Positions 13,997 to 59,621 of a DNA stretch of 64,000 nt are shown here, piece after piece. Every line of letters starts with the position of its first letter. Within the stretch, counting starts at the first letter, position 1. Source of the stretch: Synergistota bacterium (lineage in GTDB: Bacteria; Synergistota; GBS-1); contig JANXBX010000001.1 in assembly GCA_025060595.1 (NCBI GenBank), positions 185,696-249,695 of the forward strand, written 5' to 3'. The notes beneath the pieces are model-generated. The model saw only the letters and a list, made by a program, of their open reading frames with translations. It did not search any database and was not told where the DNA came from. Both the position numbers and the translations under genes were made by a program.

Positions 13997-14046
13997 TATT
14001 CCATAAGCTATCTCTCTTGCAGGCTCTCCCTTTTGAGGATTTACTA

Positions 14047-17433: not shown

Positions 17434-17509
17434 TCCTCTCTTTTCATCTATTATGATTATATCAGCTTATGCTATACTTCTAAAAGAAGAAGGAAAGGAG
17501 GAAGAAACC

Positions 17510-19089: not shown

Positions 19090-19145
19090 TTAATCAAGAA
19101 CCTAAACATAGTTTAAAAACGATAAATAAGTGTTATAATAACCTT

Positions 19146-20270: not shown

Positions 20271-20273
20271 GTC

Positions 20274-20801
20274 GTGAACGTAGCAATTAAGCTGACTCTT
20301 CTAAGAATGATTTTAACTATACCGTTTATAGTATCTTGCCTATTAGAGGAAGGAAGCTTAAAGTTTATATCCCTTATCCTGTTTTCAATCGCTTCCTTAA
20401 CCGATTATCTTGATGGTAGAATCGCTAGAGCAAAAAATATAATTACAGATGCCGGTAAAATACTTGATCCAATAGCAGATAAAATCCTGATAACAGGAGC
20501 CTTCGTTAGCTTCGTCCAACTAGGCAAGGTTCCCGCTTGGATAGCAATTGTCATAATATCAAGAGAGTTTTTGGTAACAGGATTAAGAACCTTAGCGGCC
20601 AACAAAAACGTTATAATAGCAGCAAGCTCTTTTGGAAAAGCTAAGATGTTTCTTCAAACTATAGCAGTGTTTCTCATACTACTGGGATTTAATGAAATTA
20701 TAAATCTTTTAGTGCTATGGGCAACAGCCATAATAACTATATTATCAGGCTTAGACTACTTTATTAAAAACAGAAATATAATAAAGGAGGCCCTAAAGTA
20801 A
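20274..20801 (+). CDS. pgsA: CDP-diacylglycerol--glycerol-3-phosphate 3-phosphatidyltransferase
   Basis: CDP-alcohol phosphatidyltransferase motif DYLDGRIAR...; GTG start with GGGGTGG RBS. Confidence 0.85.
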   Translation: MNVAIKLTLLRMILTIPFIVSCLLEEGSLKFISLILFSIASLTDYLDGRIARAKNIITDAGKILDPIADKILITGAFVSFVQLGKVPAWIAIVIISREFLVTGLRTLAANKNVIIAASSFGKAKMFLQTIAVFLILLGFNEIINLLVLWATAIITILSGLDYFIKNRNIIKEALK

Positions 20802-28228: not shown

Positions 28229-28246
28229 TTTAGTACACCTCCTATA

Positions 28247-34159: not shown

Positions 34160-36495
34160 AGCTTGACTTTGAAAAGATAATGATACTAGATGGAGCAATG
34201 GGCACAGAGCTATACAAGAGAGGACTTCCCTCCACAGCCATACCTGAGGAGCTCAACCTCTCAAACCCAGAAATAGTAAAAGAGGTTCACAAGGCCTACG
34301 TAGAAGCAGGAGCTGACATAATAACTACAAACTCCTTTGGAGGAAACAGAATAAAGCTCCAAAGCAAAGGGCTTTCTCACAAACTCTACGAGATAAATAA
34401 AAAGGCTGCTGAGATAGCTAAAGAGGCCTCAGCAGGGAAATCTTTAGTAGCAGGTTCCTTAGGTCCTTTAGGTAGAATGATTGAACCCTTGGGGGATCTA
34501 TCCTTTGAGGAAGCAGTAAGCATCTTTAAGGAACAAGGATTAGCGCTTGCCGATGGAGGGGTTGACCTTTTTCTTATTGAAACAGCCATAGACATAATGG
34601 AGGTAAAAGCAGCAATACTAGGGTTAAGGGAACTTCCCATTAAGAAGCCTATAATATGCTCTTTAACCTTTACAGAGGGAACCCTTACAGTAACTGGAAC
34701 ATCGCCTTCCGTAGGAGCGGTAAGCTTAACCTCCTGGAGGGTTAACGGATTAGGAGCAAACTGTGGAACTAATCCCTTTATATTTCCAGAGATAATAAAA
34801 GAAATGGCAAGCTATACGGAAATCCCAATAATAGCATATCCCAATGCTGGTCCTCCTGAAAAGTGGGATGAGGTTCCTCCAGAAAAGTTCTTGGAACTTG
34901 GACTCGAAATTTATAATTCTGGAGCCAACATCATAGGAGGTTGTTGCGGAACCACACCCTTCCACATAAGTTTGCTTGCAAAGGAAATTAAAGGTAAAAG
35001 AGTAGTAAAAAGATCCTTAAGAAAAGGGATTTTCCTTACAAGTAGATCCAAAATAGTTGTTTGTGATGACAGTAAAACTATAGTGATAGGGGAAAGAATA
35101 AATCCCTCTGGAAGAAAAGCTCTTGCAGAAGAGCTAAAACAAGGTAAGTTTGAAACTTTAAAAAGAGACGCTATAGAACAAGAGCTTGCAGGAGCTGACC
35201 TTATAGATTTAAATGTAGGCGTTCCTGAAACAGATAGAAAGGCTTTGATGAGAAAAGCAACCATTGAGCTTCTTAAGATAATAAGCTCGCCTCTATCCTT
35301 TGATAGCGATGATCCGGAAGTCATAGAAGCTGGTTTAAAGATATATCCAGGAAAGCCTATTTTAAACTCAACAACAGCGAAAAAAGAGGCATTAGAGAAA
35401 ACACTACCTTTGGCCCAAAAGTATGGAGCCGTAATAATAGGACTTACCATAACTGAAAAGGGCATACCTGAAAGCGTAGAAGAGAGAGTTAAAGCAGCCT
35501 ACAAAATAATCGAAGCAGCCCAGTTTTATGGAATTCCCCCACAAGAGGTTATTATCGACCCATTAACTTTACCAGCTGGAGCTCAGGATCCAACTATAAC
35601 CTTAGAAACCATAAGAAGGCTTAACAAAGATGGAATTAAAACTATCTTAGGAATATCAAACGTCTCTCATGGCTTACCAGGGAGAGAAATCCTAAACTCA
35701 GCATTCCTAGCTATGGCCATTTCGGCTGGACTATCTTTCGCTATAATAAATCCCCTTAAAAAAGAGCTTATGGAAACTGTACTCGCTTCAGACGCATTAA
35801 CCGGCAAAGATAAAAAGGGAGAGAGATTTATAAGACTGATAGGTCCTAAAAGAGAAGAAAAAGAGTTAAGGGTTTCCGACCTAACCTTAAAGGAACTAAT
35901 AATAAGGGGTGAATCTGAAAGTGCTTCTAAAGAAGCGGAAAGGCTTATAAAATCTGGAGAGGAGCCTTTTTCAATAATAGAAAAATACGTCATACCAGGT
36001 CTCGAAGATGTTGGAGAAAAGTATGAAAAAAAGATCTACTTTTTACCACAACTTATAGCCTCTGCAGAAGCTGCAAGTTCGGTATTCGAGACAGTTAAGG
36101 CATTTTCTCTAAGGACTAACTCTCGAAAAGGAAGGATAGTTATGGCAACCGTTGAAGGAGACCTTCACGACCTCGGGAAAAAGATAGTAGGACTTGTTCT
36201 TGAAAGCTTCGGATACGAGATAATAGATCTCGGAAAGGATGTTCCAGCAACAGAGGTTTTAAGGAAGTCACAAGAATTAAAACCCGACGTCGTTGGATTA
36301 AGCTGTCTAATGACAACAACGCTTGATAATATGAAAAAAACTGTAAGGCTAATTAAAGAAAACCTACCAGAGATAAAGATCATGGTAGGAGGAGCGGCGG
36401 TAAATGAAGGCTTTGCAAAAGCCTGTGGTGCCGATGGATATGGTAAAGATCCTTTTCAAGCTGTTGAGCTAGTCAGAAGGTGGATTAAAAGATGA
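34156..36495 (+). CDS. metH: Cobalamin-dependent methionine synthase core (Hcy-binding, pterin-binding, B12-cap and B12-binding domains; no activation domain)
   Basis: ILDGAMGTELY Hcy-domain N-terminus; pterin-binding GERINPSG; DLHDLGKKIVG (DxHxxG) cobalamin motif; 779 aa. Confidence 0.9.
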   Translation: MKLDFEKIMILDGAMGTELYKRGLPSTAIPEELNLSNPEIVKEVHKAYVEAGADIITTNSFGGNRIKLQSKGLSHKLYEINKKAAEIAKEASAGKSLVAGSLGPLGRMIEPLGDLSFEEAVSIFKEQGLALADGGVDLFLIETAIDIMEVKAAILGLRELPIKKPIICSLTFTEGTLTVTGTSPSVGAVSLTSWRVNGLGANCGTNPFIFPEIIKEMASYTEIPIIAYPNAGPPEKWDEVPPEKFLELGLEIYNSGANIIGGCCGTTPFHISLLAKEIKGKRVVKRSLRKGIFLTSRSKIVVCDDSKTIVIGERINPSGRKALAEELKQGKFETLKRDAIEQELAGADLIDLNVGVPETDRKALMRKATIELLKIISSPLSFDSDDPEVIEAGLKIYPGKPILNSTTAKKEALEKTLPLAQKYGAVIIGLTITEKGIPESVEERVKAAYKIIEAAQFYGIPPQEVIIDPLTLPAGAQDPTITLETIRRLNKDGIKTILGISNVSHGLPGREILNSAFLAMAISAGLSFAIINPLKKELMETVLASDALTGKDKKGERFIRLIGPKREEKELRVSDLTLKELIIRGESESASKEAERLIKSGEEPFSIIEKYVIPGLEDVGEKYEKKIYFLPQLIASAEAASSVFETVKAFSLRTNSRKGRIVMATVEGDLHDLGKKIVGLVLESFGYEIIDLGKDVPATEVLRKSQELKPDVVGLSCLMTTTLDNMKKTVRLIKENLPEIKIMVGGAAVNEGFAKACGADGYGKDPFQAVELVRRWIKR

Positions 36496-38544: not shown

Positions 38545-38622
38545 CGGGGTGTAGCGCAGACTGGTTAGCGCGCCTGCTTCGGGAGCAGGAGGTCACCGGT
38601 TCGAGTCCGGTCACCCCGACCA
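38545..38622 (+). tRNA. tRNA-Pro (anticodon CGG)
   Basis: Cloverleaf folded by hand: acceptor CGGGGTG/CACCCCG, D-stem GCGC, anticodon stem CCTGC/GCAGG with loop TTCGGGA (anticodon CGG, G37), T-arm ACCGG-TTCGAGT-CCGGT, discriminator A, encoded CCA. Confidence 0.85.
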
Positions 38623-44067: not shown

Positions 44068-45954
44068 TTAAGTCACCTTACTTCCAGGCCCTACCTCTTT
44101 CTCTGGCCTAAGTATTACTGGCCTACCCTCCTTATCTATAGCAGCAAGAAGCATCCCATGAGAGATTATCCCTTTTATCTTCGCAGGCTCAAGATTAGCT
44201 ATAACAACTACTTCCTTGCCAACAAGATCCTCAGGGGAGTAAACTTCCGCTATCCCAGCAACTATAGTTCTTACCTCATCACCCACATCTATTTCAAGTT
44301 TAAGAAGCTTATCGGTTCTCGGCACTCTTTCCGCAGATATAACCCTAGCTATCCTCAAATCCATCCTCCTAAATTCCTCGATGCTTATAAACTCGGTCAT
44401 TTTTCTCTCCTCCTTTTTAGGTTCAACCACTGCCTCTTTTCTGGGGAAAAGTATCTCCCCAGGTTTAACTTTGATACCAACTGGAAACCTACCCCAAACT
44501 AAGGAGGAAAAACCGTGATCCTCTGGTTTTCCCTCCAAACCAAGCATTTTCCAAGCTTTAACACCGCTTTCGGGCATAAAGGGGGTCAGCATAACAACCA
44601 GAAACCTCAGTCCTTCAAGAACAGTATAGAGAATCCTTGATAGCCTCTTTTTATTACCCTCTTTAGCTAAAGACCAGGGAGATGTTTCGTCTATATACTT
44701 ATTAAGGCGAGATGAAAACGCGAAAATATCCCTTAAAGTTTTGTCGAAACCAAACTCATCCATATATTCCTTAGCCCTTCTTAAGGTTTCCTCAGCCAAG
44801 GAAGCCACTTCCCTATCAACTGGCTCTTCTTCCCCAGGTTCAGGAACGATGCCATCAAAAAATCTTTCAACCATGACTAAAGTTCTATTAAGAAGGTTAC
44901 CAAAGTTGTCAGCAAGGTCACCGTTAATCCTGTTTATGAAAGCATCATGTGAAAAATCCCCATCAAGGCCAAAGGGGACTTCCCTAAGTAAGAAGTACCT
45001 GAAGGAATCAACCCCATACTTATCCACTACCTCATTAGGATCTACTACATTACCCTTGGACTTCGACATCTTCTCCCCTTCAACCGTCCACCAACCATGC
45101 GCAAATACCATCTTTGGAGGATTAAGTCCAAGAGCCATGAGCATAGCAGGCCATATAACCGCATGGAATCTCAAGATATCTTTTCCAACAAGATGGTGAA
45201 CTACAGGCCAATATTTTTTAAGCTTCTCATCATCCTGAGTAAACCCCGCAACCGTAAGATAGTTTATAAGAGCATCGAACCAAACATATATCACATGAGA
45301 GGGATCTCCTGGGAAAGGTATACCCCACTTCACAGTTGTTCTTGTAACACTTATATCCTTTAACCCCATTTTTATAAAGCTATAAACCTCATTATATCGA
45401 GACTCCGGTTTGACACAATCAGGATTTTTCTCCATATGCTCAAGAAGCTTATTCTGATATTTAGAAAGCCTAAAAAAGTATGTTTCCTCGCTTACCCTTT
45501 CAACTTCTCTACCACAATCAGGGCATCTCCTTTCAGCCAGAAGCTGCGATTCACTCCAAAACGTTTCACAAAAAACACAGTACCACCCTTCATATACTCC
45601 CTTATATATATCTCCCGACTCTATCATACGTCTAAAAGCCTCTTGAACCACATTTTTATGTCTTTCTTCCGTGGTTCTTATAAAATCATCATAGCTTATG
45701 TTAAGCTTGACCCATAAGCTCTTAAAGTTTTCAACAACCTTATCGGCAAGCTCCTTTGGATGAAGAGCCTGCTTCTCAGCAGCCCTATGTATCTTCTGAC
45801 CATGTTCATCAGTCCCCGTACAAAATAAAACATCATAGCCATCCATCCTTTTCCAACGAGCCATGACATCCGCTGCTATAGTCGTATAGGCATGCCCTAT
45901 ATGAGGAACATCATTAACATAATAAATCGGAGTAGTTATATAAAATCTCTTCAA
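44068..45954 (-). CDS. metG: Methionine--tRNA ligase with C-terminal tRNA-binding (EMAP/Trbp111-like) domain
   Basis: HIGH (HIGHAYT) and KMSKS motifs, Zn-knuckle cysteines; 628 aa. Confidence 0.95.
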   Translation of the reverse strand: MKRFYITTPIYYVNDVPHIGHAYTTIAADVMARWKRMDGYDVLFCTGTDEHGQKIHRAAEKQALHPKELADKVVENFKSLWVKLNISYDDFIRTTEERHKNVVQEAFRRMIESGDIYKGVYEGWYCVFCETFWSESQLLAERRCPDCGREVERVSEETYFFRLSKYQNKLLEHMEKNPDCVKPESRYNEVYSFIKMGLKDISVTRTTVKWGIPFPGDPSHVIYVWFDALINYLTVAGFTQDDEKLKKYWPVVHHLVGKDILRFHAVIWPAMLMALGLNPPKMVFAHGWWTVEGEKMSKSKGNVVDPNEVVDKYGVDSFRYFLLREVPFGLDGDFSHDAFINRINGDLADNFGNLLNRTLVMVERFFDGIVPEPGEEEPVDREVASLAEETLRRAKEYMDEFGFDKTLRDIFAFSSRLNKYIDETSPWSLAKEGNKKRLSRILYTVLEGLRFLVVMLTPFMPESGVKAWKMLGLEGKPEDHGFSSLVWGRFPVGIKVKPGEILFPRKEAVVEPKKEERKMTEFISIEEFRRMDLRIARVISAERVPRTDKLLKLEIDVGDEVRTIVAGIAEVYSPEDLVGKEVVVIANLEPAKIKGIISHGMLLAAIDKEGRPVILRPEKEVGPGSKVT

Positions 45955-46784
45955 TCCTTATCCCCCCTTTTCAACTTCAAAACCATCTTATATATTTCCC
46001 TTTTAGGGAGCTTGATCTCCTCAGAAAGCTTCTTTACCACTTCCTTAGAAGTAAGTCCCTTTTTCAGGAGAGAAGTTATCCTTTCCTCAATGTTCTCCTT
46101 AACATCTCCCTTGCTAAGATTCTCATTACCTTCTACCACTAAAACGATCTCTCCCTTCAGATCCTTCGCCTTAGCTAAAAGCTCCGAAAGGTAGCCTCTT
46201 AAAGCTTCCTCATGAAGCTTGGTTATCTCTCTAACTAAACAAGCCTTTCTATCTCCTAACATTTCAAGTATATCACACAAGCTTTCATATATTCTATGAG
46301 GCGATTCATAAAACACCAAAGTAAAGGGAAGATCCCTAAGACCCTTTAGAGTCTTCAACCTCTTCCCCTTCTGAGAGGGAAGGAAACCATAGAATATAAA
46401 TGGATGAGGAGTTATCCCTGAAAGAAGGAGAGCAGGAACAAAAGCAGTTGGTCCAGGGAGAACTTCTATCTTAAAACCCTCCTCTATACAAAACTTTATC
46501 GCTTCAGCTCCTACATCAGATATTCCAGGAGTACCTGCATCGCTCACCAACGAAATACTTTTCCCTTCTGAAAGAAGCTCTTTAAGAAGAGGAATCCTTT
46601 TCTTCCAGTTATTCTTGTTATAACTATAAAGCTTTTTCCTTTCTATTCCATATTTATTAAGAAGTATTCGAGTTCTTCTTGTATCCTCAGCAAATATAAC
46701 GTCACATTCTTTTAAAATCCTTAAAACCCTTAAAGTTACGTCTTCAAGGTTACCTATTGGTGTCGGACATATAAATAGGGGCAT
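45951..46784 (-). CDS. rsmI: 16S rRNA (cytidine1402-2'-O)-methyltransferase RsmI
   Basis: Tetrapyrrole-methylase fold N-terminus MPLFICPTPIGNLEDVTLR. Confidence 0.85.
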   Translation of the reverse strand: MPLFICPTPIGNLEDVTLRVLRILKECDVIFAEDTRRTRILLNKYGIERKKLYSYNKNNWKKRIPLLKELLSEGKSISLVSDAGTPGISDVGAEAIKFCIEEGFKIEVLPGPTAFVPALLLSGITPHPFIFYGFLPSQKGKRLKTLKGLRDLPFTLVFYESPHRIYESLCDILEMLGDRKACLVREITKLHEEALRGYLSELLAKAKDLKGEIVLVVEGNENLSKGDVKENIEERITSLLKKGLTSKEVVKKLSEEIKLPKREIYKMVLKLKRGDKD

Positions 46785-47513
46785 TTATATCTCACCCATA
46801 TATATCTTCTTTAGCTCCTCCGTATAACTTCCGTCCTCGTTATAAAGAATAAGAGGGCAAGAAACCTTTATCGATGGGGAACCATCTCTAACTCCCTTAA
46901 CCAAGATGAACTCAGCATCCTCATTAATTTTGGAATGGACAAATCTCATCTCCTTAGGCTCTATCTTAAGTCTTCTCATATGAAATAAAAGCTCAGCTAA
47001 CCTAAAGGGCCTATAGATGAGGTATAGTCTTCCACCCGTAGAAAGAAGATACCTTGAAGCTTTCAAGAACTCTTCAAGAGTACAACCTTCCTCGGTATAA
47101 GCTATGGATCTCATCTTATCGGAAGGTAACCTTCCGCTCTCCAACGATATGTAGGGAGGATTACCCAAAACCACGCTAAACGCCCCTTGCGGGAAATATT
47201 CTTCTATTTTTCTTAAGTCTCCCTGAATTATTTCTATTCTTTCAGAAAACCCGTTGATCTCAACGTTCTTTCTAGCTAGCTCTACAAGCTCAGGTTGTAA
47301 TTCTATCCCCGAAAGCCTTATCCCAGGAACCTTCAAGGCTAAAAGAAGAAGTACTATTCCCGTTCCTACCCCAAGCTCTATAACTTTATCTTTCGGCCTT
47401 AAAGTCAAAAAATCAGAAAGCAAAAGAGCCTCAATCCCAAAACGCGGTCCTTCCGAAGGTTGATAAAGCTTAAGCTTCCCCCTTAATATAGAATCAAACG
47501 TATATGTGCTCAT
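46785..47513 (-). CDS. N6-adenine-specific methyltransferase, small domain (tRNA m6A37 TrmN6/YfiC-like)
   Basis: NPPY motif (VLGNPPYI) and SAM-binding ELGVGTG. Confidence 0.7.
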   Translation of the reverse strand: MSTYTFDSILRGKLKLYQPSEGPRFGIEALLLSDFLTLRPKDKVIELGVGTGIVLLLLALKVPGIRLSGIELQPELVELARKNVEINGFSERIEIIQGDLRKIEEYFPQGAFSVVLGNPPYISLESGRLPSDKMRSIAYTEEGCTLEEFLKASRYLLSTGGRLYLIYRPFRLAELLFHMRRLKIEPKEMRFVHSKINEDAEFILVKGVRDGSPSIKVSCPLILYNEDGSYTEELKKIYMGEI

Positions 47514-48082
47514 TTCCTTTTAGCCTTAGATTTCGCCTCCTCTACCTCTCCTCTAAGTAGCTCTAAAACCTCCCTAATAAGCTCTCCCTTGCTTTTGTTT
47601 AAAAGCATAGAGAGCTTTTCTCTTAAACGACTCTCTATCCTCGAAGGATCAGAACCATATTTATTAATAGCTACATCCAAAAGCTTAAGCATTCTATCAA
47701 GTACAGAAGCCCCTATCTCCCTAACTATAAGCCTTTTAGTCACCTCAGCAGCCCCTTCAACAGAAAAACCAAAAAGAAGGAGATCACCAAAACCATCAAT
47801 AAAAGCCTTTACCTCCCCCTCAGAAAGCCTCCATAATAGAGAAGATTTAACCAAATCCTTTAAAGAAATTATTAAAAGAGATTCTTCAAGGCTTTTATCC
47901 CCAACCTTGTTAAGCAGGCTTTTTATCCCTCTTTCCACACCACCATAAAAGTCCTTTTTAGCTTTTTCTGAAAAAGTCGAGGCTTCAAGAATTTCCTTGG
48001 TATAGGTTAAGATCTCATCATGAACTTTGCCCTTGTCAAGAGAATAGGCGTTTGAAGAAAGAAGCAAAAGCCAAAGGATCAA
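47510..48082 (-). CDS. Hypothetical exported protein (190 aa)
   Basis: N-terminal hydrophobic signal-like segment; helical; no confident family assignment. Confidence 0.4.
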   Translation of the reverse strand: MILWLLLLSSNAYSLDKGKVHDEILTYTKEILEASTFSEKAKKDFYGGVERGIKSLLNKVGDKSLEESLLIISLKDLVKSSLLWRLSEGEVKAFIDGFGDLLLFGFSVEGAAEVTKRLIVREIGASVLDRMLKLLDVAINKYGSDPSRIESRLREKLSMLLNKSKGELIREVLELLRGEVEEAKSKAKRK

Positions 48083-48755
48083 AAGGCAACCAACTCTCCT
48101 CAGATCCCTTCACCTCCCTTAAATAACCTAAGGTCAAAGCATAACCCAGAGCAAAGGAAAAGGCTACATCAGAGAAAAAGTGATTATTGGTCTCCAATCT
48201 ATTATAAGCCACAATAACTATAAGAAACAAAAAGGCTAATCTTATCCATCCCTTAAACCTCATTCCTATCCAGCTAAAAGTTGAAGTGGCAACAAGTACA
48301 TGTCCTGACGGGAAACTTTGAAAATCGTTTTTAAACAGAGATTCAGGAAAATTAAAGAATGATAATTCTCCTAGACCCATATAAGGACGAGCTCTACCTA
48401 ATAATACCTTTAATAGATTCCCCAACAATGCAGTTAAAACTATAAGGCATAGGAGCTCGAGGATAGGATTTTCCCATTTTTCCAACCTTAGGATATAAAA
48501 AAGACATAAAAAAGAAAGCAAGAGAGGCAAAATGAAATCTGCATCTCCTATAATATTACCAAACTTAGAAAGACAGGACACTCTTCCTAAATCTGATGGA
48601 AAGACAAAATCCATAGGGATGAGGAAAATGAAAAGTAAAAGGATAACTTCTACTTCTAATTTCCTCAGGGAATTCAAAAAAGACAGGATTATCCCTTTTT
48701 TCCAGCTTCTATAAAGAAAACATAAGAGAAGAACAGCAAAGAGTAATTTATACAT
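48036..48755 (-). CDS. PAP2-family membrane phosphatase
   Basis: PSGH and SRx5Hx3D-like (NRLETNNHFFSD) acid-phosphatase motifs; multiple TM segments. Confidence 0.75.
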   Translation of the reverse strand: MYKLLFAVLLLCFLYRSWKKGIILSFLNSLRKLEVEVILLLFIFLIPMDFVFPSDLGRVSCLSKFGNIIGDADFILPLLLSFLCLFYILRLEKWENPILELLCLIVLTALLGNLLKVLLGRARPYMGLGELSFFNFPESLFKNDFQSFPSGHVLVATSTFSWIGMRFKGWIRLAFLFLIVIVAYNRLETNNHFFSDVAFSFALGYALTLGYLREVKGSEESWLPFDPLAFASFFKRLFS

Positions 48756-48770
48756 ATAATAATACTAAAT

Positions 48771-48794
48771 AAGGGGAGCTGGATTGCTCCCCTT
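48771..48794 (-). terminator. Rho-independent terminator AAGGGGAGC-TGGATT-GCTCCCCTT downstream of the HU gene
   Basis: 9-bp GC stem followed on the minus transcript by a U-rich tract (rc of ATATAATAATACTAAAT). Confidence 0.6.
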
Positions 48795-48812
48795 AAATGT
48801 TATAAAAGCCAC

Positions 48813-49100
48813 TTACTTACCCGTAACTTTCGTTTTAAGCTCTTTACCTACTCTGAAAACAGGAACCTTCCGAGGCGGTATCTTAATTTCCTCACCAGTA
48901 CGAGGGTTCCTGCCAACTCTTTCAGCCCTTTCCTTAACCTCAAATATACCAAAACCAGCTATCTGAACTTTCTCTCCTTTAGATAGGGCATCCATTACCG
49001 CTTCAAATAGAGCATTAACAACCAAAGCAGTGTCTTTCTTAGTCATGCCCGTTTTCTCCGCAACTTCCCGAACCAACTCTGCCTTCGTCAAATTTCTCAC
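48813..49100 (-). CDS. hup: HU-family DNA-binding protein
   Basis: 95 aa; GFGIFEV...RNPRTGEEIKIP arm motif. Confidence 0.9.
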   Translation of the reverse strand: MRNLTKAELVREVAEKTGMTKKDTALVVNALFEAVMDALSKGEKVQIAGFGIFEVKERAERVGRNPRTGEEIKIPPRKVPVFRVGKELKTKVTGK

Positions 49101-49275
49101 CTCCCAAGTTTTTTACCTATTATAAGCAAAATTCCTCTTCATATCAATAGGTTTTTCAAAAAGCCATTAAAAATTTTGATAGAAGCGTTTTTTTCATATC
49201 GAAGATAATAAGGTAGTGTGGTAAAATTGGTAAAGAAACGGCTCAGAATTAACTTTACAAAAGGGAGGTGCGATT

Positions 49276-49629
49276 ATGGCAGAGCAATATCATGAACCAA
49301 CAAATGAACTAACAGCAAAAGACAGGGATTTCACAAGAGCGCTCGTAAGCTTAAAGGAAGAGATCGAAGCAATAATGTGGTACCAGCAGAGAGCTTCCGC
49401 CACCAAAGATGAAACCATTAGGGAAGTGTTAGAACACAACAGGGACGAAGAGATGGAGCATGCGGCTATGCTCCTTGAGTGGCTCAGAAGAAACATGCCT
49501 GGCTGGGATAAAGCTTTAAAAACTTATCTCTTTACAACTGAACCATTAACACAGATAGAAGCGGAAGTAAGTAATGAAGAGGAATCTCCAGGTGGAGATC
49601 TTAAACTAAGAAAGATTAAAAGGGGGTGA
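49276..49629 (+). CDS. Encapsulated ferritin-like protein (EncFtn/Flp cargo) with C-terminal encapsulin targeting peptide
   Basis: Two ExxH di-iron motifs (EEIEAIMWYQQR, EEMEHAAML) and C-terminal GGDLKLRKIKRG resembling the T. maritima Flp cargo-loading peptide; directly precedes the encapsulin gene. Confidence 0.8.
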   Translation: MAEQYHEPTNELTAKDRDFTRALVSLKEEIEAIMWYQQRASATKDETIREVLEHNRDEEMEHAAMLLEWLRRNMPGWDKALKTYLFTTEPLTQIEAEVSNEEESPGGDLKLRKIKRG

Positions 49630-49635
49630 ATTCTA

Positions 49636-50433
49636 GTGGACTTCTTAAGGAGAAAGCTATCTCCACTTACACCTAAAGAATGGGAAGAGGTAGATAAGAG
49701 AGCTAAAGAAGTGTTCTCAACCCAACTTTATGGAAGAGCAATAGTAGACGTTCTTGGTCCTTTTGGATGGGAATACGCTGCACATCCTATGGGTGAAGTA
49801 GAAAAGCTCTCTAAAGAAGGAGATACTATAGAGTTTGGTTTAAGAAAAGCGCTTCCTTTAATAGAGCTAAAGAGGTACTTCTACCTCGATCTTAATGAAC
49901 TTGATAAATTAGAAAGGGGACATCCTGCGGTAGACCTATCCTCCCTAGAAGAAGCGGTTAGAGACGTTGCATCTTTCGAAGACGGAGCTATCTTCGAAGG
50001 ATGTGAAAAGTCTGGAATAAAAGGAATTTTAGCTTATAAAAATGAAAGAAACATACAATCTTCCTTGAAAGAGGAGGAGTTTATAGAAAGCTTATACAAG
50101 GCCTTATCTAAATTCAAGTCTGATGGAATTGAAGGACCCTACGCCTTAGTTATAAACATAGATAAGTGGGTAGAACTCGTTAAGGGAAGCAAGTATTATC
50201 CTATAGAGGAAAAGATTGAAGATATATTAAAAGATGGTAAGATTCTCACCACACCACGTATAAGCGATGCTCTTGTGGTTTCTGAAAGAGGCGGTGATTT
50301 TGAGCTTATTTTAGGACAAGACCTATCAATAGGTTATGAAAAAACAGAAAACTCGAAGGTAAAACTATTTATCCTTGAAAGCTTCACCTTTAGAGTGGTC
50401 AACCCTGAAGCTTTAGTATATCTTAAGTTTTAA
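49636..50433 (+). CDS. Family-1 encapsulin nanocompartment shell protein (HK97 fold; linocin M18/maritimacin-like)
   Basis: 265 aa; strong similarity along the full length to T. maritima encapsulin as recalled from memory ([45 protein letters not shown]). Confidence 0.9.
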
Positions 50434-50452
50434 GGCTTTAAAAATATACTTT

Positions 50453-50482
50453 AAGGGGTAGGCTTCTTGAAGCTTACCCCTT
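50453..50482 (+). terminator. Stem-loop (about 14 bp with one G-U) after the encapsulin gene; probable partial terminator before the M32 gene
   Basis: AAGGGGTAGGCTTC..GAAGCTTACCCCTT followed by AAAATTTT. Confidence 0.45.
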
Positions 50483-50501
50483 AAAATTTTAAAGATAAAA
50501 G

Positions 50502-51983
50502 ATGGGTATCAATGAGCTTAAAAAAGAGCTATTAAAAATAGCCAAAATTAAAAGTGCCATATCATTACTTCAATGGGATTTATCAACCTATATACCGCCT
50601 AAAGGGATCGAATGGAGAGCAGAAGTATTAGGAGAGCTATCAGAATACGTATTTTCCTTACTCACAAGCGAAAAGCTAGGAGAGCTTATAAACAAAGCCT
50701 TAGAAGAGGCAGAAACTGAAGAAGATACAGCTCTAGTAAAACTGACCCAAAAGGAGTATTCTAGATATAGAAAGATTCCTAAAGAGCTATTTATAGAGTT
50801 TCAAAAGGAGCGTGCAAGATCAGAAAAACTCTGGGAAGAGGCAAGAAAGGAAAACAACTTCCTTATATTACAGGAAAGCCTAAGCAAAATAGTTAAAATG
50901 TTGATAGATATAACAGAATGTATAGGTTATAAAGAAAATAGATATGATGCTTTATTGGATGAGCATGAACCTGGCTTTGAAACAAACAAGTTAAAGCAGA
51001 TATTCTCTAACGCAAAAAAAGAGCTTCTAAGCTTACTAGAAAAAATCGAACCTAAACATACCAATATCAAACGAGTAAACGAAATATGTGAAGGACCGTT
51101 TCCCTTAGACAAACAAAAAGAGCTATGCCTCAATATAATAACAAACATCGGATTTGACCTATCCTCCGGCAGGCTTGACACTTCGGCCCATCCCTTTACA
51201 GAAATTGTTGGACTAAAGGATGTGAGAATAACTACAAGATATGATGAAAGGGATTTTTCTCAAGCCCTGTTTGCAACGCTGCACGAGTGCGGACATGCCC
51301 TTTACGACCTAAACATTCCGGAAAGGTTTTTCGGACTACCCATAGGAGATGGAGCTTCTTCAGGATTCCATGAAAGCCAGGCGAGGTTTTGGGAAAACTT
51401 CATAGGAAGAAGCTTTTACTTCATGGTTTTCATAAAGCCAGTTTTAGATGAATATTTCCAACCCTTAAAATCGATTAAATTAGAAGATCTGTGGAGAGCA
51501 TTTAATATCGTTAAAAGATCTTTAATAAGGGTCAGTTCCGATGAAATAACCTATAATCTTCATATAATACTAAGATTTGAACTTGAAGAAGCATTAATAA
51601 ATGAAAAATTGTTGGTTTCTGATCTTCCTTACATCTGGAATGAGAAAATGGAAGAATATTTCGGTATAAGGCCAGATAGCCTAAAAAGCGGAGTTTTACA
51701 AGATATCCACTGGGCAGCCGGATTGTTTGGCTATTTTCCATCCTATATGCTAGGAAACATATATGCAGGACAGATCTACTTTAAGCTTAAGAAAGATATT
51801 CAAAACTTAGAAGAAGCTGTATCAAAAGGTAACTTTAAAATAATTCTTGAATGGCTTAAAGAAAACATATTTTCTTATGGAAAACTTTATGAGCCCTTAG
51901 AACTTATAAGGAAAATCTCTGGAGAGGAGCTCTCGTCTAGATACTTAGTAGAATACCTAAAAGACAAATTTTTAGAGAGGTGA
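50502..51983 (+). CDS. M32-family carboxypeptidase (thermostable carboxypeptidase Taq-like)
   Basis: HEXXH (LHECGHALY) and M32 N-terminal LLQWDLSTYIPPKG pattern; 493 aa. Confidence 0.85.
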   Translation: MGINELKKELLKIAKIKSAISLLQWDLSTYIPPKGIEWRAEVLGELSEYVFSLLTSEKLGELINKALEEAETEEDTALVKLTQKEYSRYRKIPKELFIEFQKERARSEKLWEEARKENNFLILQESLSKIVKMLIDITECIGYKENRYDALLDEHEPGFETNKLKQIFSNAKKELLSLLEKIEPKHTNIKRVNEICEGPFPLDKQKELCLNIITNIGFDLSSGRLDTSAHPFTEIVGLKDVRITTRYDERDFSQALFATLHECGHALYDLNIPERFFGLPIGDGASSGFHESQARFWENFIGRSFYFMVFIKPVLDEYFQPLKSIKLEDLWRAFNIVKRSLIRVSSDEITYNLHIILRFELEEALINEKLLVSDLPYIWNEKMEEYFGIRPDSLKSGVLQDIHWAAGLFGYFPSYMLGNIYAGQIYFKLKKDIQNLEEAVSKGNFKIILEWLKENIFSYGKLYEPLELIRKISGEELSSRYLVEYLKDKFLER

Positions 51984-51991
51984 ACTAGATA

Positions 51992-52384
51992 TTGAAATTT
52001 GTCTTTCTCACTTTAATAATTTTTCTAATAATATTAAAGATGTTTGAGGGGACCGCTTCAGCTTTAGAGATTCCAGAAATTACACCTGAAGAAGCTTGGA
52101 ACTACCTAGGAAAAGAAGGATATGTATTTCTCGATGTTAGAGAGCCTCATGAGTACAATGAGGAGCGTATTAAAGGGGCAATAAACCTACCTAAGGGAAT
52201 GGTTGGCTCAAAAATAGGAGAACTCTTCCCTAAAAAAGAAGCCCAAGTATTCATAGTTTACTGTCGATCAGGAAGAAGATCTCTTGATGCTACTAAGACA
52301 CTAATAGAAATGGGCTATAAAGCCTTTAACATGAAGGGTGGAATATTAGCCTGGAAAAAAGCAAATCTTCCAACGGAAAAATAA
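51992..52384 (+). CDS. Rhodanese-domain protein with N-terminal signal/anchor
   Basis: Active-site CRSGRRS loop; hydrophobic N-terminus; TTG start per the track (alternative ATG at 52040). Confidence 0.75.
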   Translation: MKFVFLTLIIFLIILKMFEGTASALEIPEITPEEAWNYLGKEGYVFLDVREPHEYNEERIKGAINLPKGMVGSKIGELFPKKEAQVFIVYCRSGRRSLDATKTLIEMGYKAFNMKGGILAWKKANLPTEK

Positions 52385-52443: not shown

Positions 52444-53298
52444 CTAAATTATGCCTTTCCTCCTCCACCTATATCTTAGATATATACCTAAACCGCTTAT
52501 AGATAAAGTTAAGATTAGTAATACAAGAGCCGATCCGAATGCCATTGGAATTTGCTTCTCTGGTTTAGTTCCTTCAGTCATTAGGCCATAAATAAGATAC
52601 GGAAGAGCCATAACTTCATCAAATATAGAGCTAGGAAGCTTACGAGTATAAAAGGTCACTGCAGTAAACATTATAGGAGCAGTCTCGCCCGCCGCCCTAC
52701 CCAAACTTAATATAGCACCAGTGAGAATACTTGGAAAGGCGATAGGCAAAAGAACAATCCTAATCATTTTCCACTTACCTGCTCCTAAAGCGTAAGCCGC
52801 CTCTCTCAAATCCATAGGTATCGCCTTAATAGCCTCTTCAGTAACCTTTATCATGATAGGTAAAACAAGAACGCCAAGAGTTAACACTCCTGAAAGAATT
52901 GAAACTCCAAAACCAAAAGCATTAACAAAAAGAGATAAACCAAACAAACCGAATACTACCGATGGTATGCCAGCTAAGGCATTTACACAACTTCTCACAA
53001 GAGAAGTAAACCAATTATCCTTAGCAAACTCACTTAGATATATACCTGAAAAAACTCCAAGAGGCAGGGCGACGATTATAGAACCTACTGAAAGATAAAG
53101 GCTACCTAAAAGAGCAGGATATATACCTCCTTCAGTCATACTTTTTCTTGGTTCTTCAAGAAGGAAAGACAGGGTTAGCTTTTCACCGCCCTTGATTACT
53201 AAAACTAAAAGTAACGAAAATAAGAAAAGAAGCACAAATAAAACCAACAATCTAAGAACCATTACGGCTATTTTTTCCTCAAAGATCAACCACTTCAT
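52444..53298 (-). CDS. pstA: Phosphate ABC transporter permease PstA
   Basis: Polytopic permease with EAA-type loop (EAAYALGAGKW). Confidence 0.85.
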   Translation of the reverse strand: MKWLIFEEKIAVMVLRLLVLFVLLFLFSLLLVLVIKGGEKLTLSFLLEEPRKSMTEGGIYPALLGSLYLSVGSIIVALPLGVFSGIYLSEFAKDNWFTSLVRSCVNALAGIPSVVFGLFGLSLFVNAFGFGVSILSGVLTLGVLVLPIMIKVTEEAIKAIPMDLREAAYALGAGKWKMIRIVLLPIAFPSILTGAILSLGRAAGETAPIMFTAVTFYTRKLPSSIFDEVMALPYLIYGLMTEGTKPEKQIPMAFGSALVLLILTLSISGLGIYLRYRWRRKGII

Positions 53299-54155
53299 AG
53301 ATAAATCCTCCTCTTACCGAACTTATCAGCAATAAAATTTAAAAGGACCGTTATAATAAAAAGTATCATTCCTATAGCAAACAGAGCATGGTAATGAAGG
53401 CTACCAAAAGGAGCCTCGCCCATTTCAGCCGCTATCGTCGCAGTCATAGTTCTAACAGGATCGAATATAGACTTGGGTATTTTAGCGGCTCCACCAGCTA
53501 CCATTAAAACAGTCATGGTTTCTCCTATAGCTCTTCCCATTCCCAAAAATATACTCGAAAGAATTCCAGACCACGCCGTCGGTATAACCACATGGGTAAC
53601 CGTTCTCCATTTTGTCGCTCCAAGAGCATAAGAAGCTTCCAAAAGCTCATGAGGAACCATAGACATAGAATCCTCAGCAACGCTTGCTACTAAAGGTATT
53701 ATCATTATTCCGAGAACTATAGAAGCGGTAAAAGCGTTAAGCCCTAAAGGCAAATCAAACAGGTTCTTAATAAATGGGCCTAACACCACCATGCCAAAGA
53801 AGCCGTATATAACAGATGGTATGCATGCCAAAACCTCAAGAATAGGCTTTAAGGTTTCTCTCACCTTAGGGCGAGCGAAAAAGGCCATATATATAGCTGC
53901 CCCAAGTCCTAAAGGTATCCCAACAATCAGCGCTCCCAATGTAATAACGATGGTCCCAACAATTATAGGAAGGATCCCAAAGGCGGGCGGGATATATGTT
54001 GGATACCATTGCTTACCAAGGAAAAATTTCAAAGGGGATACCTCTCTAAACAGAGGCATCCCCTCCTCAAAGAGCATTACAACTATTCCTAAGGTAGCGA
54101 TAATCGTCAACAAAGCTGAAACGAAAACTATCCCCTTAGCTACCTTCTCCTCCAT
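53295..54155 (-). CDS. pstC: Phosphate ABC transporter permease PstC
   Basis: Polytopic permease, EASYALGATKW loop; translationally coupled to pstA. Confidence 0.85.
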   Translation of the reverse strand: MEEKVAKGIVFVSALLTIIATLGIVVMLFEEGMPLFREVSPLKFFLGKQWYPTYIPPAFGILPIIVGTIVITLGALIVGIPLGLGAAIYMAFFARPKVRETLKPILEVLACIPSVIYGFFGMVVLGPFIKNLFDLPLGLNAFTASIVLGIMIIPLVASVAEDSMSMVPHELLEASYALGATKWRTVTHVVIPTAWSGILSSIFLGMGRAIGETMTVLMVAGGAAKIPKSIFDPVRTMTATIAAEMGEAPFGSLHYHALFAIGMILFIITVLLNFIADKFGKRRIYL

Positions 54156-54158
54156 GGC

Positions 54159-54986
54159 CTACTTAACTGGAACAAAACCCTCATCCTTAACTATCTTCTG
54201 CCCTTGCGGAGACAAGATGAAATCTATGAAGTCCTTAACTGCACCTTTAGGTTCTCCATTAGTGTACAGGAAAAGCGGCCTCGAGAGCTTATAAGTACCA
54301 TTTACTACCGTCTCCATCGTGGGCTTAACTCCCTCAATCTCCAAAGCCTTAACCTTATCGGTAACGTATCCTAATCCTATATAACCAATAGCACCCTCTG
54401 TCTGAGCAACAGCCTCTGCAACAGCTTTGTTAGAGGCTAAAAGAAGAGCGTCTCCCCTAAGCTTCTCATCCTTTAAGACAAGCTCATGGAAAGATCCGTA
54501 AGTTCCAGAAGCGGTATCTCTTGAAACGACCACGATCTTAACGTCCTTCCCACCAACTTCCTTCCAATTATTTATCTTTCCACTGTATATATCTCTAACT
54601 TGAGCAACTGTCAAAGCCTTCACAGGATTAGATGGATGAACAACTATAGCCAAACCATCCCTCGCAATCATATGCTCAACAGGATTAACGCCTCTGGCCT
54701 TAGCCTTCTCTATCTCCTCTTTCTTCATAGCTCTTGAAGACATCGCTATATCACAAGTCCCATCGATAAGAGCCGCTATTCCTACGCCAGAACCCCCTCC
54801 CTTGACAGAAACATTAACATCCTTTTTAACATCCATAAACTTTTCAGCACAAGCTTGAGCGATTGGAAATACAGTGGTTGAACCAACTACGTTAACGCTC
54901 TTAGACTGTGCCCATACCCCAAAAGCAAAAGCTAAAACTAAAGTAGCTACTACAACTATCCTCCTAAGCCTCATAAAACAAACCAC
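54159..54986 (-). CDS. pstS: Phosphate-binding protein PstS
   Basis: Signal peptide; PBP-superfamily SGTYGSF phosphate-binding pattern; likely start at 54974 (MRLRR). Confidence 0.85.
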   Translation of the reverse strand: MVCFMRLRRIVVVATLVLAFAFGVWAQSKSVNVVGSTTVFPIAQACAEKFMDVKKDVNVSVKGGGSGVGIAALIDGTCDIAMSSRAMKKEEIEKAKARGVNPVEHMIARDGLAIVVHPSNPVKALTVAQVRDIYSGKINNWKEVGGKDVKIVVVSRDTASGTYGSFHELVLKDEKLRGDALLLASNKAVAEAVAQTEGAIGYIGLGYVTDKVKALEIEGVKPTMETVVNGTYKLSRPLFLYTNGEPKGAVKDFIDFILSPQGQKIVKDEGFVPVK

Positions 54987-55109
54987 CTCCTAAGAATTTT
55001 TCTATAAGGAATTTTAGTAGGATATATTAAAGCAAGTACAAAGGAATCTTAAAGAAATCTTTACAAAGACGCTTATCAAAAAAAAGGAACTTAAAGAATA
55101 AAATAAAAA

Positions 55110-56369: not shown

Positions 56370-56669
56370 ATGATAGCTAAAAGAGGTGATTTTGTCCAAA
56401 TCCAAGTTAAAATACTTGAACCTGGGGAAAGGGCTCCAAACCTACCAGAAGACACTAAAAGGGTTCCTTTCGAAATGAGGGTTAAGGGGTTTCTAATCGA
56501 AGAGGAAGCAAAATTAGGATCCAGCGTTAAAATAAGGACCTTTTCTGGCAGAGAGATAAGTGGAACCTTAGTAGCCATAAATCCAGTATACGAACATAAC
56601 TTTGGCGAGCCGGTTCCTGAGCTCTTAAACATCGGTGAAGAGCTAAGAAAGATATTAGGAGGTGAATAG
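56370..56669 (+). CDS. ortA: 2-amino-4-ketopentanoate thiolase alpha subunit
   Basis: 99 aa from the ATG at 56370 (RBS AGAAGGGGGTGA). Motifs PEDTKRVP, VKGFL, VAINPVYEHNFGEPVPELL closely resemble C. sticklandii OrtA as recalled. The track start (56322) is overcalled. Confidence 0.75.
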   Translation: MIAKRGDFVQIQVKILEPGERAPNLPEDTKRVPFEMRVKGFLIEEEAKLGSSVKIRTFSGREISGTLVAINPVYEHNFGEPVPELLNIGEELRKILGGE

Positions 56670-56670
56670 C

Positions 56671-58104
56671 TTGAAGGAAAGATACTCTTACCAAGCAGTT
56701 ATGGAAAGAAGAGCTGAGATAATGAGAAAGGCAGTCGGTATAGATTACGATAGGTTCGTAATTAAAGGAATAGCTTTCGACTATGAGAGAATGATGAAAG
56801 AGGTAGGATATCCCATAGAAGAGATAAGAAAGATCCAAAGCGAAACATCTGTCGGGAATACTCCTCTTGTAGAGCTTAAAAACATAAATAAGCTGATTAA
56901 GAAACTAGCTCCAAAAGGTAAGGGAGCCAGGATATTCCTGAAGGATGAAGCAACGAACCCCTCTGGAAGCTTTAAGGATCGAAGAGCGTCAATAAGCATA
57001 TATCGAGCATCACAACTGGGATATAAGGGCGTCATCGCCGCCACAAGCGGCAATTACGGAGCAGCGGTTGCATCTCAAGCAGCAAAGAGAAACCTAAGAT
57101 GCATAATAGTTCAGGAGTGCTTCGATAATAATTGGATAGGACAGCCAGAAATATTGGAAAAGGGAAGGGCTTGTGAAGCATATGGTGCAGAAGTAGTTCA
57201 GCTTACTGTTGGACCGGAGCTATTTTATTACACGCTTGTCCTTCTAGAAGAGACCGGTTATTTTAATGCCTCACTTTATACCCCTTATGCTATAGCTGGA
57301 ATAGAAACTCTAGGATATGAGATAGCTGAACAAACCCAAAAACTTACAGGAAGATTCCCTGATGCAGTCGTAGTTACACATGCTGGAGGAGGACTCATAA
57401 CTGGAACCGCACGTGGACTTAAGAAAGCGGGAGCACAAGAGACTAAAGTAATAGGTGCAAGTGTAGATCTAAGAGGTCTACATATGGCCAGCACAAATGA
57501 CTTTAACAAGAAATACTTTACTACAGGACATACGGGATTTGGTATACCTTTTGCAGCCTATCCTGACAGGGCAGATGTCCCTAAAAACGCAGCAAGACCC
57601 CTAAGATACATGGATAGATATGTTCTTGTAACTCAGGGAGATGTTTTCTATATAACTGAGATGCTTGCGCAGCTCGAAGGCCTACAGAGAGGACCCGCTG
57701 GAAACACATCCTTAGCTGCAGCCTTTTCTCTTGCAATGGAAATGGAAGAGGATAAAATAATAGTCGTCAATGAAACGGAATATACCGGAGCTGGAAAGCT
57801 ACCTTCTGCTCAGCTAACCTTCGCTAAAAAAATGGGAATGATAGTTAAACGAGGAGATCCCTTGAAGGAAGATAAACCAGGACAGGTTATAGTTATACCA
57901 GAACATCCATCTCAGATAAGGCACATAGAATATCCCTTAGAAGAACTTAAAAAGAGCTATATTAAGGAACTAATACGTCGAGAAAATAAGAAAGACTTCG
58001 ATGAAAAGGAGTTAAGCTTCTTAGAGGAAGATTTAAGAATCTCAAGAAAAGAATTGATCAAGCTTATAGATGAGGTAAAAATAGCCCTTCAGGGGTTACC
58101 TTAA
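56671..58104 (+). CDS. ortB: 2-amino-4-ketopentanoate thiolase beta subunit (PLP-dependent, Trp-synthase-beta fold)
   Basis: TTG start 5 nt after RBS AGGAGGTGA; SFKDRRAS PLP-lysine motif; about 477 aa; immediately follows ortA. Confidence 0.75.
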   Translation: MKERYSYQAVMERRAEIMRKAVGIDYDRFVIKGIAFDYERMMKEVGYPIEEIRKIQSETSVGNTPLVELKNINKLIKKLAPKGKGARIFLKDEATNPSGSFKDRRASISIYRASQLGYKGVIAATSGNYGAAVASQAAKRNLRCIIVQECFDNNWIGQPEILEKGRACEAYGAEVVQLTVGPELFYYTLVLLEETGYFNASLYTPYAIAGIETLGYEIAEQTQKLTGRFPDAVVVTHAGGGLITGTARGLKKAGAQETKVIGASVDLRGLHMASTNDFNKKYFTTGHTGFGIPFAAYPDRADVPKNAARPLRYMDRYVLVTQGDVFYITEMLAQLEGLQRGPAGNTSLAAAFSLAMEMEEDKIIVVNETEYTGAGKLPSAQLTFAKKMGMIVKRGDPLKEDKPGQVIVIPEHPSQIRHIEYPLEELKKSYIKELIRRENKKDFDEKELSFLEEDLRISRKELIKLIDEVKIALQGLP

Positions 58105-58295
58105 AAAGCCATTTTAATTTAGACTAGAAAGATCCTATTTATTGTCTTTTACTATAAAAAATACCACTTCTGATAAAAAATCGAGGGTTGAATAAAACTA
58201 GAATGTAGGCTATGATAGAAATGAGATTAAATAGCATGAAGTAAAAAGAACCAAAAAGGAAACTTGCTATTTTTGAGGGGGGGGAGGATACCAAA

Positions 58296-59579
58296 ATGAG
58301 ATTAAGCACGATGGGGAATCTTAAGCCCTTTGGGCCACTTTATGAGAATGCTCAGAAACAGTTCTTAAAGGCAGCTGACCTCATAGACTTAGACCCAAAC
58401 CTTGGAAACTTTCTCTTATGGCCGCAGAGAACCTTGGAAGTTCACTTTCCAGTAGTAATGGATGATGGAAGAGTAGAAATATTTAAGGGGTATAGGGTAC
58501 AACATAACACAGCAAGAGGGCCTGCCAAGGGAGGCATAAGATATCATCCAGACACCCACCTTGATGAGGTTGCAGCCTTAGCATTTTGGATGACCTGGAA
58601 ATGCGCAGTTATGAACCTTCCTTTTGGCGGGGGTAAGGGCGGAGTTAGAGTTGATCCATCGAAGCTATCAGAAAAGGAGCTCGAGAGACTAAGCAGAAGA
58701 TACTTCTCAGAAATTCAAGTCATAATAGGGCCTCACAAGGATATACCGGCACCTGACATAAATACAAACCCAAAGATAATGGCCTGGTACATGGACACCT
58801 ATAGCATGAATGTAGGTTATACAAGCCTTGGCGTGGTTACAGGAAAGCCTCTTGACCTTGGCGGATCCGAAGGCAGACCGGAAGCAACAGGTAGAGGGGT
58901 TTCAATACTAGCAAACGAAGCCTGTAAGATCTTAGGAAAGGATATTTCGAAGGCAAGAGTTGCAATTCAAGGATTTGGAAACGTTGGCTCTTACTCAGCG
59001 AAGATATTAAGTGAGGAATATGGAGCAAAGATAGTAGCAGTAAGCGATATAAGCGGTGGCATATACGATGAAAGGGGATTAAACATTAGCGACCTAATAC
59101 ACTATAGGGACATGAATAAAGGTATAATTAAAGGCTATCCTAAAGGAGAAGCGATATCAAACAAGGAACTTTTGGAGCTTGATGTAGACATCTTAGTTCC
59201 AGCAGCTCTTGAAAATGCGATTACAGAAAAAAACGCAAATGATGTTAAGGCAAAGATTATAATCGAGGGGGCAAACGGTCCTATTACTCCAGAAGCAGAA
59301 GAGATTCTTTTAAAGAAAGGCATTTTTATTGTACCTGACATTGTGGCAAACGCAGGAGGAGTCGTAGTATCTTACTTTGAGTGGGTCCAAGATCTCCAAA
59401 CCTTCTTCTGGGATATTGATGAAATAAGAAAGAGGTTAATGAAAATGATGATTCATGCCTTCATAGAGGTCGGTAAAACCAAAGAAAAGTATAATACCGA
59501 TATGAGAACAGCCGCATATATAGTTGCAATTAACAGGGTCGCAAGCGCTCTAAAACAAAGAGGCTACTATCCAATGTAA
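58296..59579 (+). CDS. gdhA: Glutamate dehydrogenase (Glu/Leu/Phe/Val dehydrogenase family)
   Basis: GGGKGG catalytic-lysine motif region, GFGNVG Rossmann motif; RBS GAGGGGGGGGAGGA. Confidence 0.9.
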   Translation: MRLSTMGNLKPFGPLYENAQKQFLKAADLIDLDPNLGNFLLWPQRTLEVHFPVVMDDGRVEIFKGYRVQHNTARGPAKGGIRYHPDTHLDEVAALAFWMTWKCAVMNLPFGGGKGGVRVDPSKLSEKELERLSRRYFSEIQVIIGPHKDIPAPDINTNPKIMAWYMDTYSMNVGYTSLGVVTGKPLDLGGSEGRPEATGRGVSILANEACKILGKDISKARVAIQGFGNVGSYSAKILSEEYGAKIVAVSDISGGIYDERGLNISDLIHYRDMNKGIIKGYPKGEAISNKELLELDVDILVPAALENAITEKNANDVKAKIIIEGANGPITPEAEEILLKKGIFIVPDIVANAGGVVVSYFEWVQDLQTFFWDIDEIRKRLMKMMIHAFIEVGKTKEKYNTDMRTAAYIVAINRVASALKQRGYYPM

Positions 59580-59589
59580 TTAGAGAGAC

Positions 59590-59621
59590 AAGGCCCGTGA
59601 GGTTTTAACCTCACGGGCCTT
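59590..59621. terminator. Bidirectional terminator AAGGCCCGTGAGG-TTTTAA-CCTCACGGGCCTT shared by convergent gdh (+) and dctM (-)
   Basis: Perfect 13-bp stem; T-run follows on the plus strand and overlaps the dctM stop codon. Confidence 0.7.

Follow-up and report, generated by a model that had tools for sequence, protein, structure and literature searches.

A two-gene EncFtn encapsulin cassette close to that of Thermotoga maritima, with asparagine at the position of the flavin-stacking tryptophan

Introduction

The closest described relative of the system presented here is that of Thermotoga maritima, whose encapsulin and ferritin-like cargo we take to be the genes TM0785/TM0786. The T. maritima shell is a flavoprotein; FMN is stacked against its Trp87 (W90 in the alternative numbering), and flavin binding is lost with the substitution W90E (PMC8086157, PMC8610991). 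This tryptophan has been reported in only about 35% of the encapsulins with ferritin cargo, and His187 of the same shell is reported as not conserved. The structurally characterised T. maritima targeting peptide is GGDLGIRK (PMC10960027), and modelling of this peptide assigns its glycine the role of a flexible hinge that is important for flexibility (PMC7925596). As for the cargo enzyme, the EncFtn of Rhodospirillum rubrum has a ferroxidase centre made of Glu32, Glu62, His65 and Tyr39 and an entry site made of Glu31 and Glu34 (PMC5012862).

We analysed a stretch of 64 kb of DNA (hereafter the window) from a Synergistota-like uncultured thermophile. Its positions 49276-50433 hold what is very probably a functional, self-contained two-gene family-1 encapsulin operon of the working EncFtn type, serving iron oxidation and storage. 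The pair is closely related to the T. maritima system and is of an ordinary, already known kind; its significance beyond cataloguing is small, since both the structure and the biochemistry of EncFtn encapsulins are well understood. What sets the locus apart from T. maritima is found at the flavin site of the shell, in the targeting peptide of the cargo and in the host.

Results and Discussion

The gene pair and its products

The two genes and the positions in them that matter most for the comparison with T. maritima are the following.

49276..49629, + strand: EncFtn cargo gene, ATG start, 117 aa
49591..49626, + strand: targeting-peptide codons G106-G-D-L-K-L-R-K-I-K-R-G117, after a disordered acidic linker
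49636..50433, + strand: family-1 encapsulin shell gene, GTG start, 265 aa
49894..49896, + strand: AAT codon of shell Asn87, which alignments place at the position of T. maritima flavin-stacking Trp87 (W90 in the alternative numbering)

Both open reading frames match the profiles of their families and together fill the interval exactly, with 6 nt separating the cargo stop from the shell start, which agrees with the two-gene encapsulin pair that an earlier, sequence-only reading of this DNA had described. Identical proteins are already present in NCBI (three accessions each), from MAGs labelled Synergistetes/Synergistota bacterium, where the shell carries the name "encapsulin" and the cargo is listed as "ferritin-like domain-containing protein", and the window is matched by GCA_026414785.1, contig JAOAII010000002.1. 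A genome scan gave two related loci, L001 (JASKLF010000001.1) and L002 (bacterium GBS-1, LEKQ01000016.1), with shells 77-78% identical to that of the window.

The cargo matches the EncFtn-like profile PF22277 with E=1.8e-40 (137 bits, cutoff 27) and TIGR04535, "encapsulin-associated ferritin-like protein", with 147.7 bits (cutoff 125), and five solved EncFtn proteins match it at E=1e-25 to 1e-30. Residues 4-95 align without gaps with residues 7-98 of the 5DA5 chain of R. rubrum EncFtn. In this alignment the cargo residues E29, Y36, E59 and H62 correspond to the R. rubrum ferroxidase residues E32, Y39, E62 and H65, while E28 and E31 correspond to the entry-site residues Glu31 and Glu34, and W35, likewise assigned to the entry site, to Trp38; the iron-site and entry-site residues are invariant across 18 relatives. 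The structure model of the cargo consists of two long antiparallel helices (14-42 and 46-73) and a short third one (77-84), and it superposes on 5DA5 with a target-normalised TM of 0.90 and 1.7 A, a value which refers to the monomer fold. The EncFtn proteins of R. rubrum (5DA5) and Haliangium ochraceum (EncFtn/encapsulin structures 5N5F, 7ODW, 7OE2) share with the window cargo the fold (target TM about 0.9) and all ferroxidase-centre and entry-site residues, with a lower sequence identity of about 50%, compared with 73% for the cargo of T. maritima. An antisense ORF of 68 aa (49290-49496), which lies entirely within the cargo gene, was treated as a chance ORF.

The shell matches PF04454 with E=2e-80 (270.2 bits, cutoff 24.3) and, over its full length, the equivalog NF041155, "family 1 encapsulin nanocompartment shell protein", with 270.6 bits (cutoff 100). 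Its alignment with the T. maritima shell 3DKT is nearly gapless from 1-265 to 1-265 (E=1e-109, 63% identity). It pairs the first residues of the two proteins and so confirms the GTG start. The AlphaFold model of the shell (55 homologs) has a mean pLDDT of 94.7 and falls on the cryo-EM and crystal structures 7KQ5 and 3DKT with TM 0.97 and 1.2 A. It shows the HK97-type fold with N-terminal helix, E-loop, P-domain and A-domain, and large insertions are absent. Similarity to other T=1 encapsulins is also high (TM at least 0.90; for H. ochraceum TM 0.94 at 39% identity), and similarity to T=3 and T=4 shells is lower (0.77-0.82), so that the model points to a protomer of the T=1 type.

The sequence-only reading had assigned the shell to family-1 encapsulins and had made its interpretation depend on the HK97 fold of the shell and on the ExxH di-iron sites of the cargo, to be examined by alignment with T. 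maritima. The profile matches of the shell lie far above chance, its fold is retained over the full alignment to 3DKT, and the four di-iron residues of the cargo are all in place, so the assignment holds in each of these respects.

We infer assembly, loading, T number and ferroxidase activity from homology, on the basis of the solved systems of T. maritima, R. rubrum and H. ochraceum. By analogy with them, EncFtn would assemble into annular decamers in which dimer interfaces form the di-iron sites. The two hydrophobic residues and the basic residues of the D-L-x-L-R-K tail would dock close to the five-fold axes, in a pocket on the lumenal side of the shell protomers, and sixty shell subunits would enclose the cargo in a T=1 cage about 24 nm across. 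Fe2+ would enter via the shell pores and be oxidised by EncFtn, and the ferric mineral would be deposited in the lumen. Such storage may protect an anaerobic thermophile from the toxicity of iron and oxygen.

The targeting peptide

The C-terminus of the cargo protein reads ...EESPGGDLKLRKIKRG (in another excerpt, ...NEEESPGGDLKLRKIKRG), and its disordered tail terminates in GGDLKLRKIKRG. The peptide GGDLKLRKIK, which had earlier been quoted as the cargo C-terminus, is indeed there: it spans residues 106-115, and R116 and G117 complete the protein. In the structure model pLDDT is below 50 throughout residues 100-117, which are thus predicted to be flexible, as expected for a linker and a peptide. 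The tail of the Thermotoga cargo P0007, which is the 73% identical one, is GGDLGIRKL and aligns with GGDLKLRKIKRG; judged by their residues, the window tail and the T. maritima peptide belong to one class, both following the pattern G-G-D-L-x-[IL]-R-K. The tails of R. rubrum and H. ochraceum are in contrast of the G-S-L-G-I-G-S-L-R/K type, and not of the D-L-x-h-R-K type found here.

The window tail differs from that of T. maritima in two ways. It is three or four residues longer (I-K-R-G against L), the codons of this extension holding the ribosome-binding site of the shell gene, and its hinge residue, which lies between the two hydrophobic anchors, is lysine and not glycine. A recognisable core [DES]-L-x-[ILVM]-[RGS]-x is present in 87 of the 120 cargo homologues listed. 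The hinge is glycine in 67 of these 87 tails and K, N, D, R, E or H in the other 20, with lysine, as here, occurring six times; hinges other than glycine are found in close relatives of the window cargo as well (DLEIRK, DLKIRK, DLRIRD, DLKIRN). The exchange of the hinge glycine for lysine is a small departure. Comparison of the window with L001 and L002 shows that G-G-D-L and R-K are retained through synonymous DNA changes, whereas the hinge codon varies (AAA, GGC and GAG, encoding K, G and E, respectively), which indicates that the motif, but not the hinge, is under selection. A thermostable shell together with a variant peptide with an L-K-L core also offers an additional data point for the engineering of orthogonal cargo loading.

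Signals around the two genes

Four elements around the reading frames and at their junction give the pair the appearance of a compact unit.

49219..49227, + strand: extended -10-like element TGGTAAAAT (TG-n-TAAAAT), about 50 nt 5' of the cargo start
49263..49270, + strand: cargo ribosome-binding site GGGAGGTG, 5 nt 5' of the ATG
49618..49630, + strand: 13-nt junction AAAAGGGGGTGAA, comprising the cargo K-R-G-stop codons and the Shine-Dalgarno sequence GGGGGTG, 7 nt 5' of the shell GTG
50450..50485, + strand (core arms 50453-50466 and 50469-50482): GC-rich hairpin followed by A-TTTT, the likely intrinsic terminator of the two-gene unit

The pattern TGnTA(A/G)AAT is kept at the corresponding position in L001 and in the non-syntenic L002, and TGGTAAAAT is a candidate promoter of the cassette; a hexamer scan of the + strand gave no strong -35/-10 pair and no clear -35 element. 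The cargo ribosome-binding site GGGAGGTG is also present in L001, and L002 has GGAGGTG. The junction (AAA AGG GGG TGA) is identical in the window, L001 and L002 despite differing flanking bases, from which translational coupling of the shell to the cargo appears probable. The K-R-G extension of the cargo tail has no counterpart in Thermotoga, and the double use of its codons as the ribosome-binding site of the shell may be what maintains it.

The hairpin downstream of the shell gene has a folding energy of -25.9 kcal/mol (z = -4.2), and none of 200 shuffled sequences was equally stable. It is kept in both related loci, in L002 with a better T-run and with paired differences in the central stem, so that pairing is apparently preserved. 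A consensus terminator scan did not call this hairpin because its T-run is short. Taken together, promoter, cargo, translationally coupled shell and terminator would form one compact cassette. In 49101-49275 there is no convincing Fur box: the best match departs from the 19-bp consensus at 8 positions, a fit equalled or bettered by 89% of shuffles. An Rfam scan of the whole window gave no RNA element at the encapsulin locus; the sole match in the 64 kb is a tRNA gene at 38545-38619 (+).

The flavin site and the five-fold pore

The shell residue at position 87 is asparagine in the window and in four of its five closest relatives (P0122-P0125), and lysine in the fifth (P0126). Tryptophan is present at this position in the Thermotoga clade and in 77 of the 116 retrieved shells. 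In a neighbour-joining tree of the shells the clade with asparagine or lysine is sister to the Thermotoga clade and is nested among the shells bearing tryptophan, and this looks like a derived loss of tryptophan. With asparagine at position 87 the shell is probably not flavin-binding and hence, as far as can be judged from its residues, probably not a flavoprotein. Compared with T. maritima, the loop of the five-fold pore has one residue fewer, and His187 is replaced by tyrosine.

The absence of Trp87 is not unusual in the family as a whole, and the label "Thermotoga-type" should not imply flavin binding. The sequence-only reading had called the compartment a classic one of this type, which is right for the order of the genes (cargo, then shell), the fold of the shell and the class of the tail, and does not extend to residue 87 of the shell or to the hinge of the peptide. 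A shell so similar to that of T. maritima, yet without the flavin-binding tryptophan, could help to test the role of the flavin.

Related loci and lateral transfer

The uncultured sisters of the window proteins (shells P0122-P0126 and cargos P0002-P0006, including those of L001 and L002) are 77-91% identical to them. Along with asparagine or lysine at shell position 87, they have tails of the ...RK-x-KRG form, the same junction and the same terminator hairpin, and they differ in the hinge residue (G, E or K) and, in the case of L002, in wholly different flanks. L001 is flanked as the window is, by genes for HU, M32 carboxypeptidase and rhodanese. In L002 the cassette is preceded by genes for a C26 peptidase and DcuC and followed by those for CobT and CobU, and none of the flanking genes is shared with the window. 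The two genes and the noncoding features, namely the -10-like element, the junction and the hairpin, are common to all three loci even though the flanks of L002 are unrelated, which argues that the cassette is a self-contained unit.

The closest named relatives of the cassette are from Thermotoga, with 63% identity for the shell and 73% for the cargo, while the shells of named Synergistales are merely 41-45% identical to that of the window. A different affinity is seen in the methionyl-tRNA synthetase (MetRS) gene of the window, 44068-45954 (-). Outside its own uncultured clade its nearest named relatives belong to Synergistota (Thermosynergistes, Thermovirga, Aminobacterium; 54-60% identity) and Atribacterota, and no Thermotoga protein is found among the 120 matches listed. 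This mismatch suggests lateral transfer, and the cassette has probably moved between thermophile lineages, for which a single marker such as MetRS is weak evidence. The pair had earlier been offered as an anchor for taxonomic comparison; with Thermotoga nearest to the cassette and Synergistota nearest to MetRS, and with lateral transfer probable, it is a poor one. More generally, the mismatch between the relatives of the cassette and those of its host calls for caution in the use of encapsulin operons for taxonomic placement.

MetRS and an adjoining gene of the TP_methylase family (45951-46784, also on the - strand) overlap by 4 nt. Several MetRS relatives of 874-879 aa (P0287, P0297, P0302 and P0316) have the TP_methylase domain PF00590 in the same polypeptide, thus the pair is apparently fused in some lineages.

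We lean slightly towards the view that the clade, as sister to the flavo-encapsulin of T. maritima, is flavin-free by nature, Trp87 having been replaced by asparagine while the cargo and the peptide class were kept. In this view the genes move together with all their expression signals (promoter element, shell ribosome-binding site within the codons of the cargo tail, terminator) as one cassette, which Thermotogota and a Synergistota-like lineage of thermophiles have exchanged. If this is true, the clade represents a natural control for the role of shell-bound flavin in anaerobes.

Neighbouring genes and other explanations of the locus

The cassette lies between the following genes.

48813-49100, - strand: HU-family gene, upstream of the cassette and divergent from it
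50502-51983, same strand as the shell: M32 carboxypeptidase gene, downstream
51992-52384, same strand as the shell: rhodanese gene, downstream, product with a hydrophobic N-terminus

These neighbours had been described as HU upstream and M32 carboxypeptidase and exported rhodanese downstream, and had been considered not to be typical cargo. Both statements agree with what we found, although the hydrophobic N-terminus of the rhodanese makes its export only a likely one. A search for further cargo tails, which had also been proposed, was made within the 64-kb window in all stop-to-stop frames of 50 codons or more, on either strand, with five patterns (GGDLxxRK, DLxhRK, a fuzzy GGDLKLRKI and two of the GSL/LGIGSL type). 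No C-terminal targeting tail besides that of EncFtn was found with these patterns in any frame of the window; the matches at 27206-28246 and 34911-35498 are internal, are due to chance and do not lie at a C-terminus.

Several other explanations of the locus can be weighed against a working EncFtn compartment. The shell could assemble while its cargo is loaded poorly or not at all, if lysine in place of glycine at the hinge (L-K-L for L-G-I) makes the tail more rigid and leaves EncFtn mostly free in the cytoplasm. The flexible-hinge role which modelling gives to this glycine (PMC7925596), as well as its predominance in the recognisable tails, speaks in favour of such a failure. However, other hinges recur in close relatives with the remaining motif intact, the DNA shows purifying selection on the G-G-D-L and R-K to either side, and the coupling of cargo and shell genes remains tight, and we regard poor loading as very improbable. 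Still less probable is that the M32 carboxypeptidase, the rhodanese or both are unconventional cargo or cotranscribed partners. Both genes are on the strand of the shell with short gaps between them, and the order HU, EncFtn, shell, M32, rhodanese is repeated in L001. Against this, neither protein ends in a peptide resembling a targeting tail, the stable and conserved hairpin parts both genes from the shell gene, neither is present beside the L002 cassette, where the C26 peptidase/DcuC and CobT/CobU genes stand instead, and the hydrophobic leader at the N-terminus of the rhodanese suggests that it is exported. On these grounds the two neighbours were rejected as cargo and as members of the operon.

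The least credible explanation, to which we give almost no weight, is that the shell gene is a remnant of an HK97-type prophage capsid or encodes a secreted "bacteriocin", as in the old linocin/maritimacin annotation. The fold is common to HK97 capsids, and several homologs are still named "bacteriocin" or "maritimacin" in databases. The best matches of the protein are nevertheless encapsulin-specific models and solved encapsulin shells, and not phage capsids, and a dedicated cargo with a targeting tail is encoded directly upstream. Genes within 10 kb on either side are those of housekeeping, transport and amino-acid or other metabolism, and none of the genes called in this range is of a phage type (portal, terminase, maturation protease). 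The prophage and bacteriocin readings were rejected on the encapsulin-specific profile and structure matches together with these flanks. A two-gene EncFtn encapsulin operon is thus the explanation we retain.

Some features of the surrounding DNA can be added. A hairpin with a T-run at 48770-48795 (-) lies directly downstream of the HU gene and resembles a terminator, so HU is probably a single-gene unit divergent from the cassette. The best promoter-like site of the region, TTGATA-17-TATAAT (11/12), is situated at 49147-49119 (-) and faces HU. Further along the minus strand, 46785-48755 is occupied by a run of genes with overlapping ends, encoding a methyltransferase (46785-47513), a protein of 190 aa (47510-48082) which has an N-terminal hydrophobic segment and no Pfam match, and a PAP2-family membrane protein (48036-48755). 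On the other side of the cassette, the regions 52444-55000 (-) and about 56370-59600 (+), as read from L003 (positions 13169-20302), hold an ABC-transporter set with two BPD_transp_1 permeases and a PBP_like_2 binding protein, which we read as phosphate-type, as well as DctP, OrtA with a PALP enzyme, and glutamate dehydrogenase. OrtA, the PALP enzyme and glutamate dehydrogenase were read as genes of ornithine/amino-acid fermentation, and these downstream genes would be consistent with an amino-acid-fermenting, Synergistota-like lifestyle.
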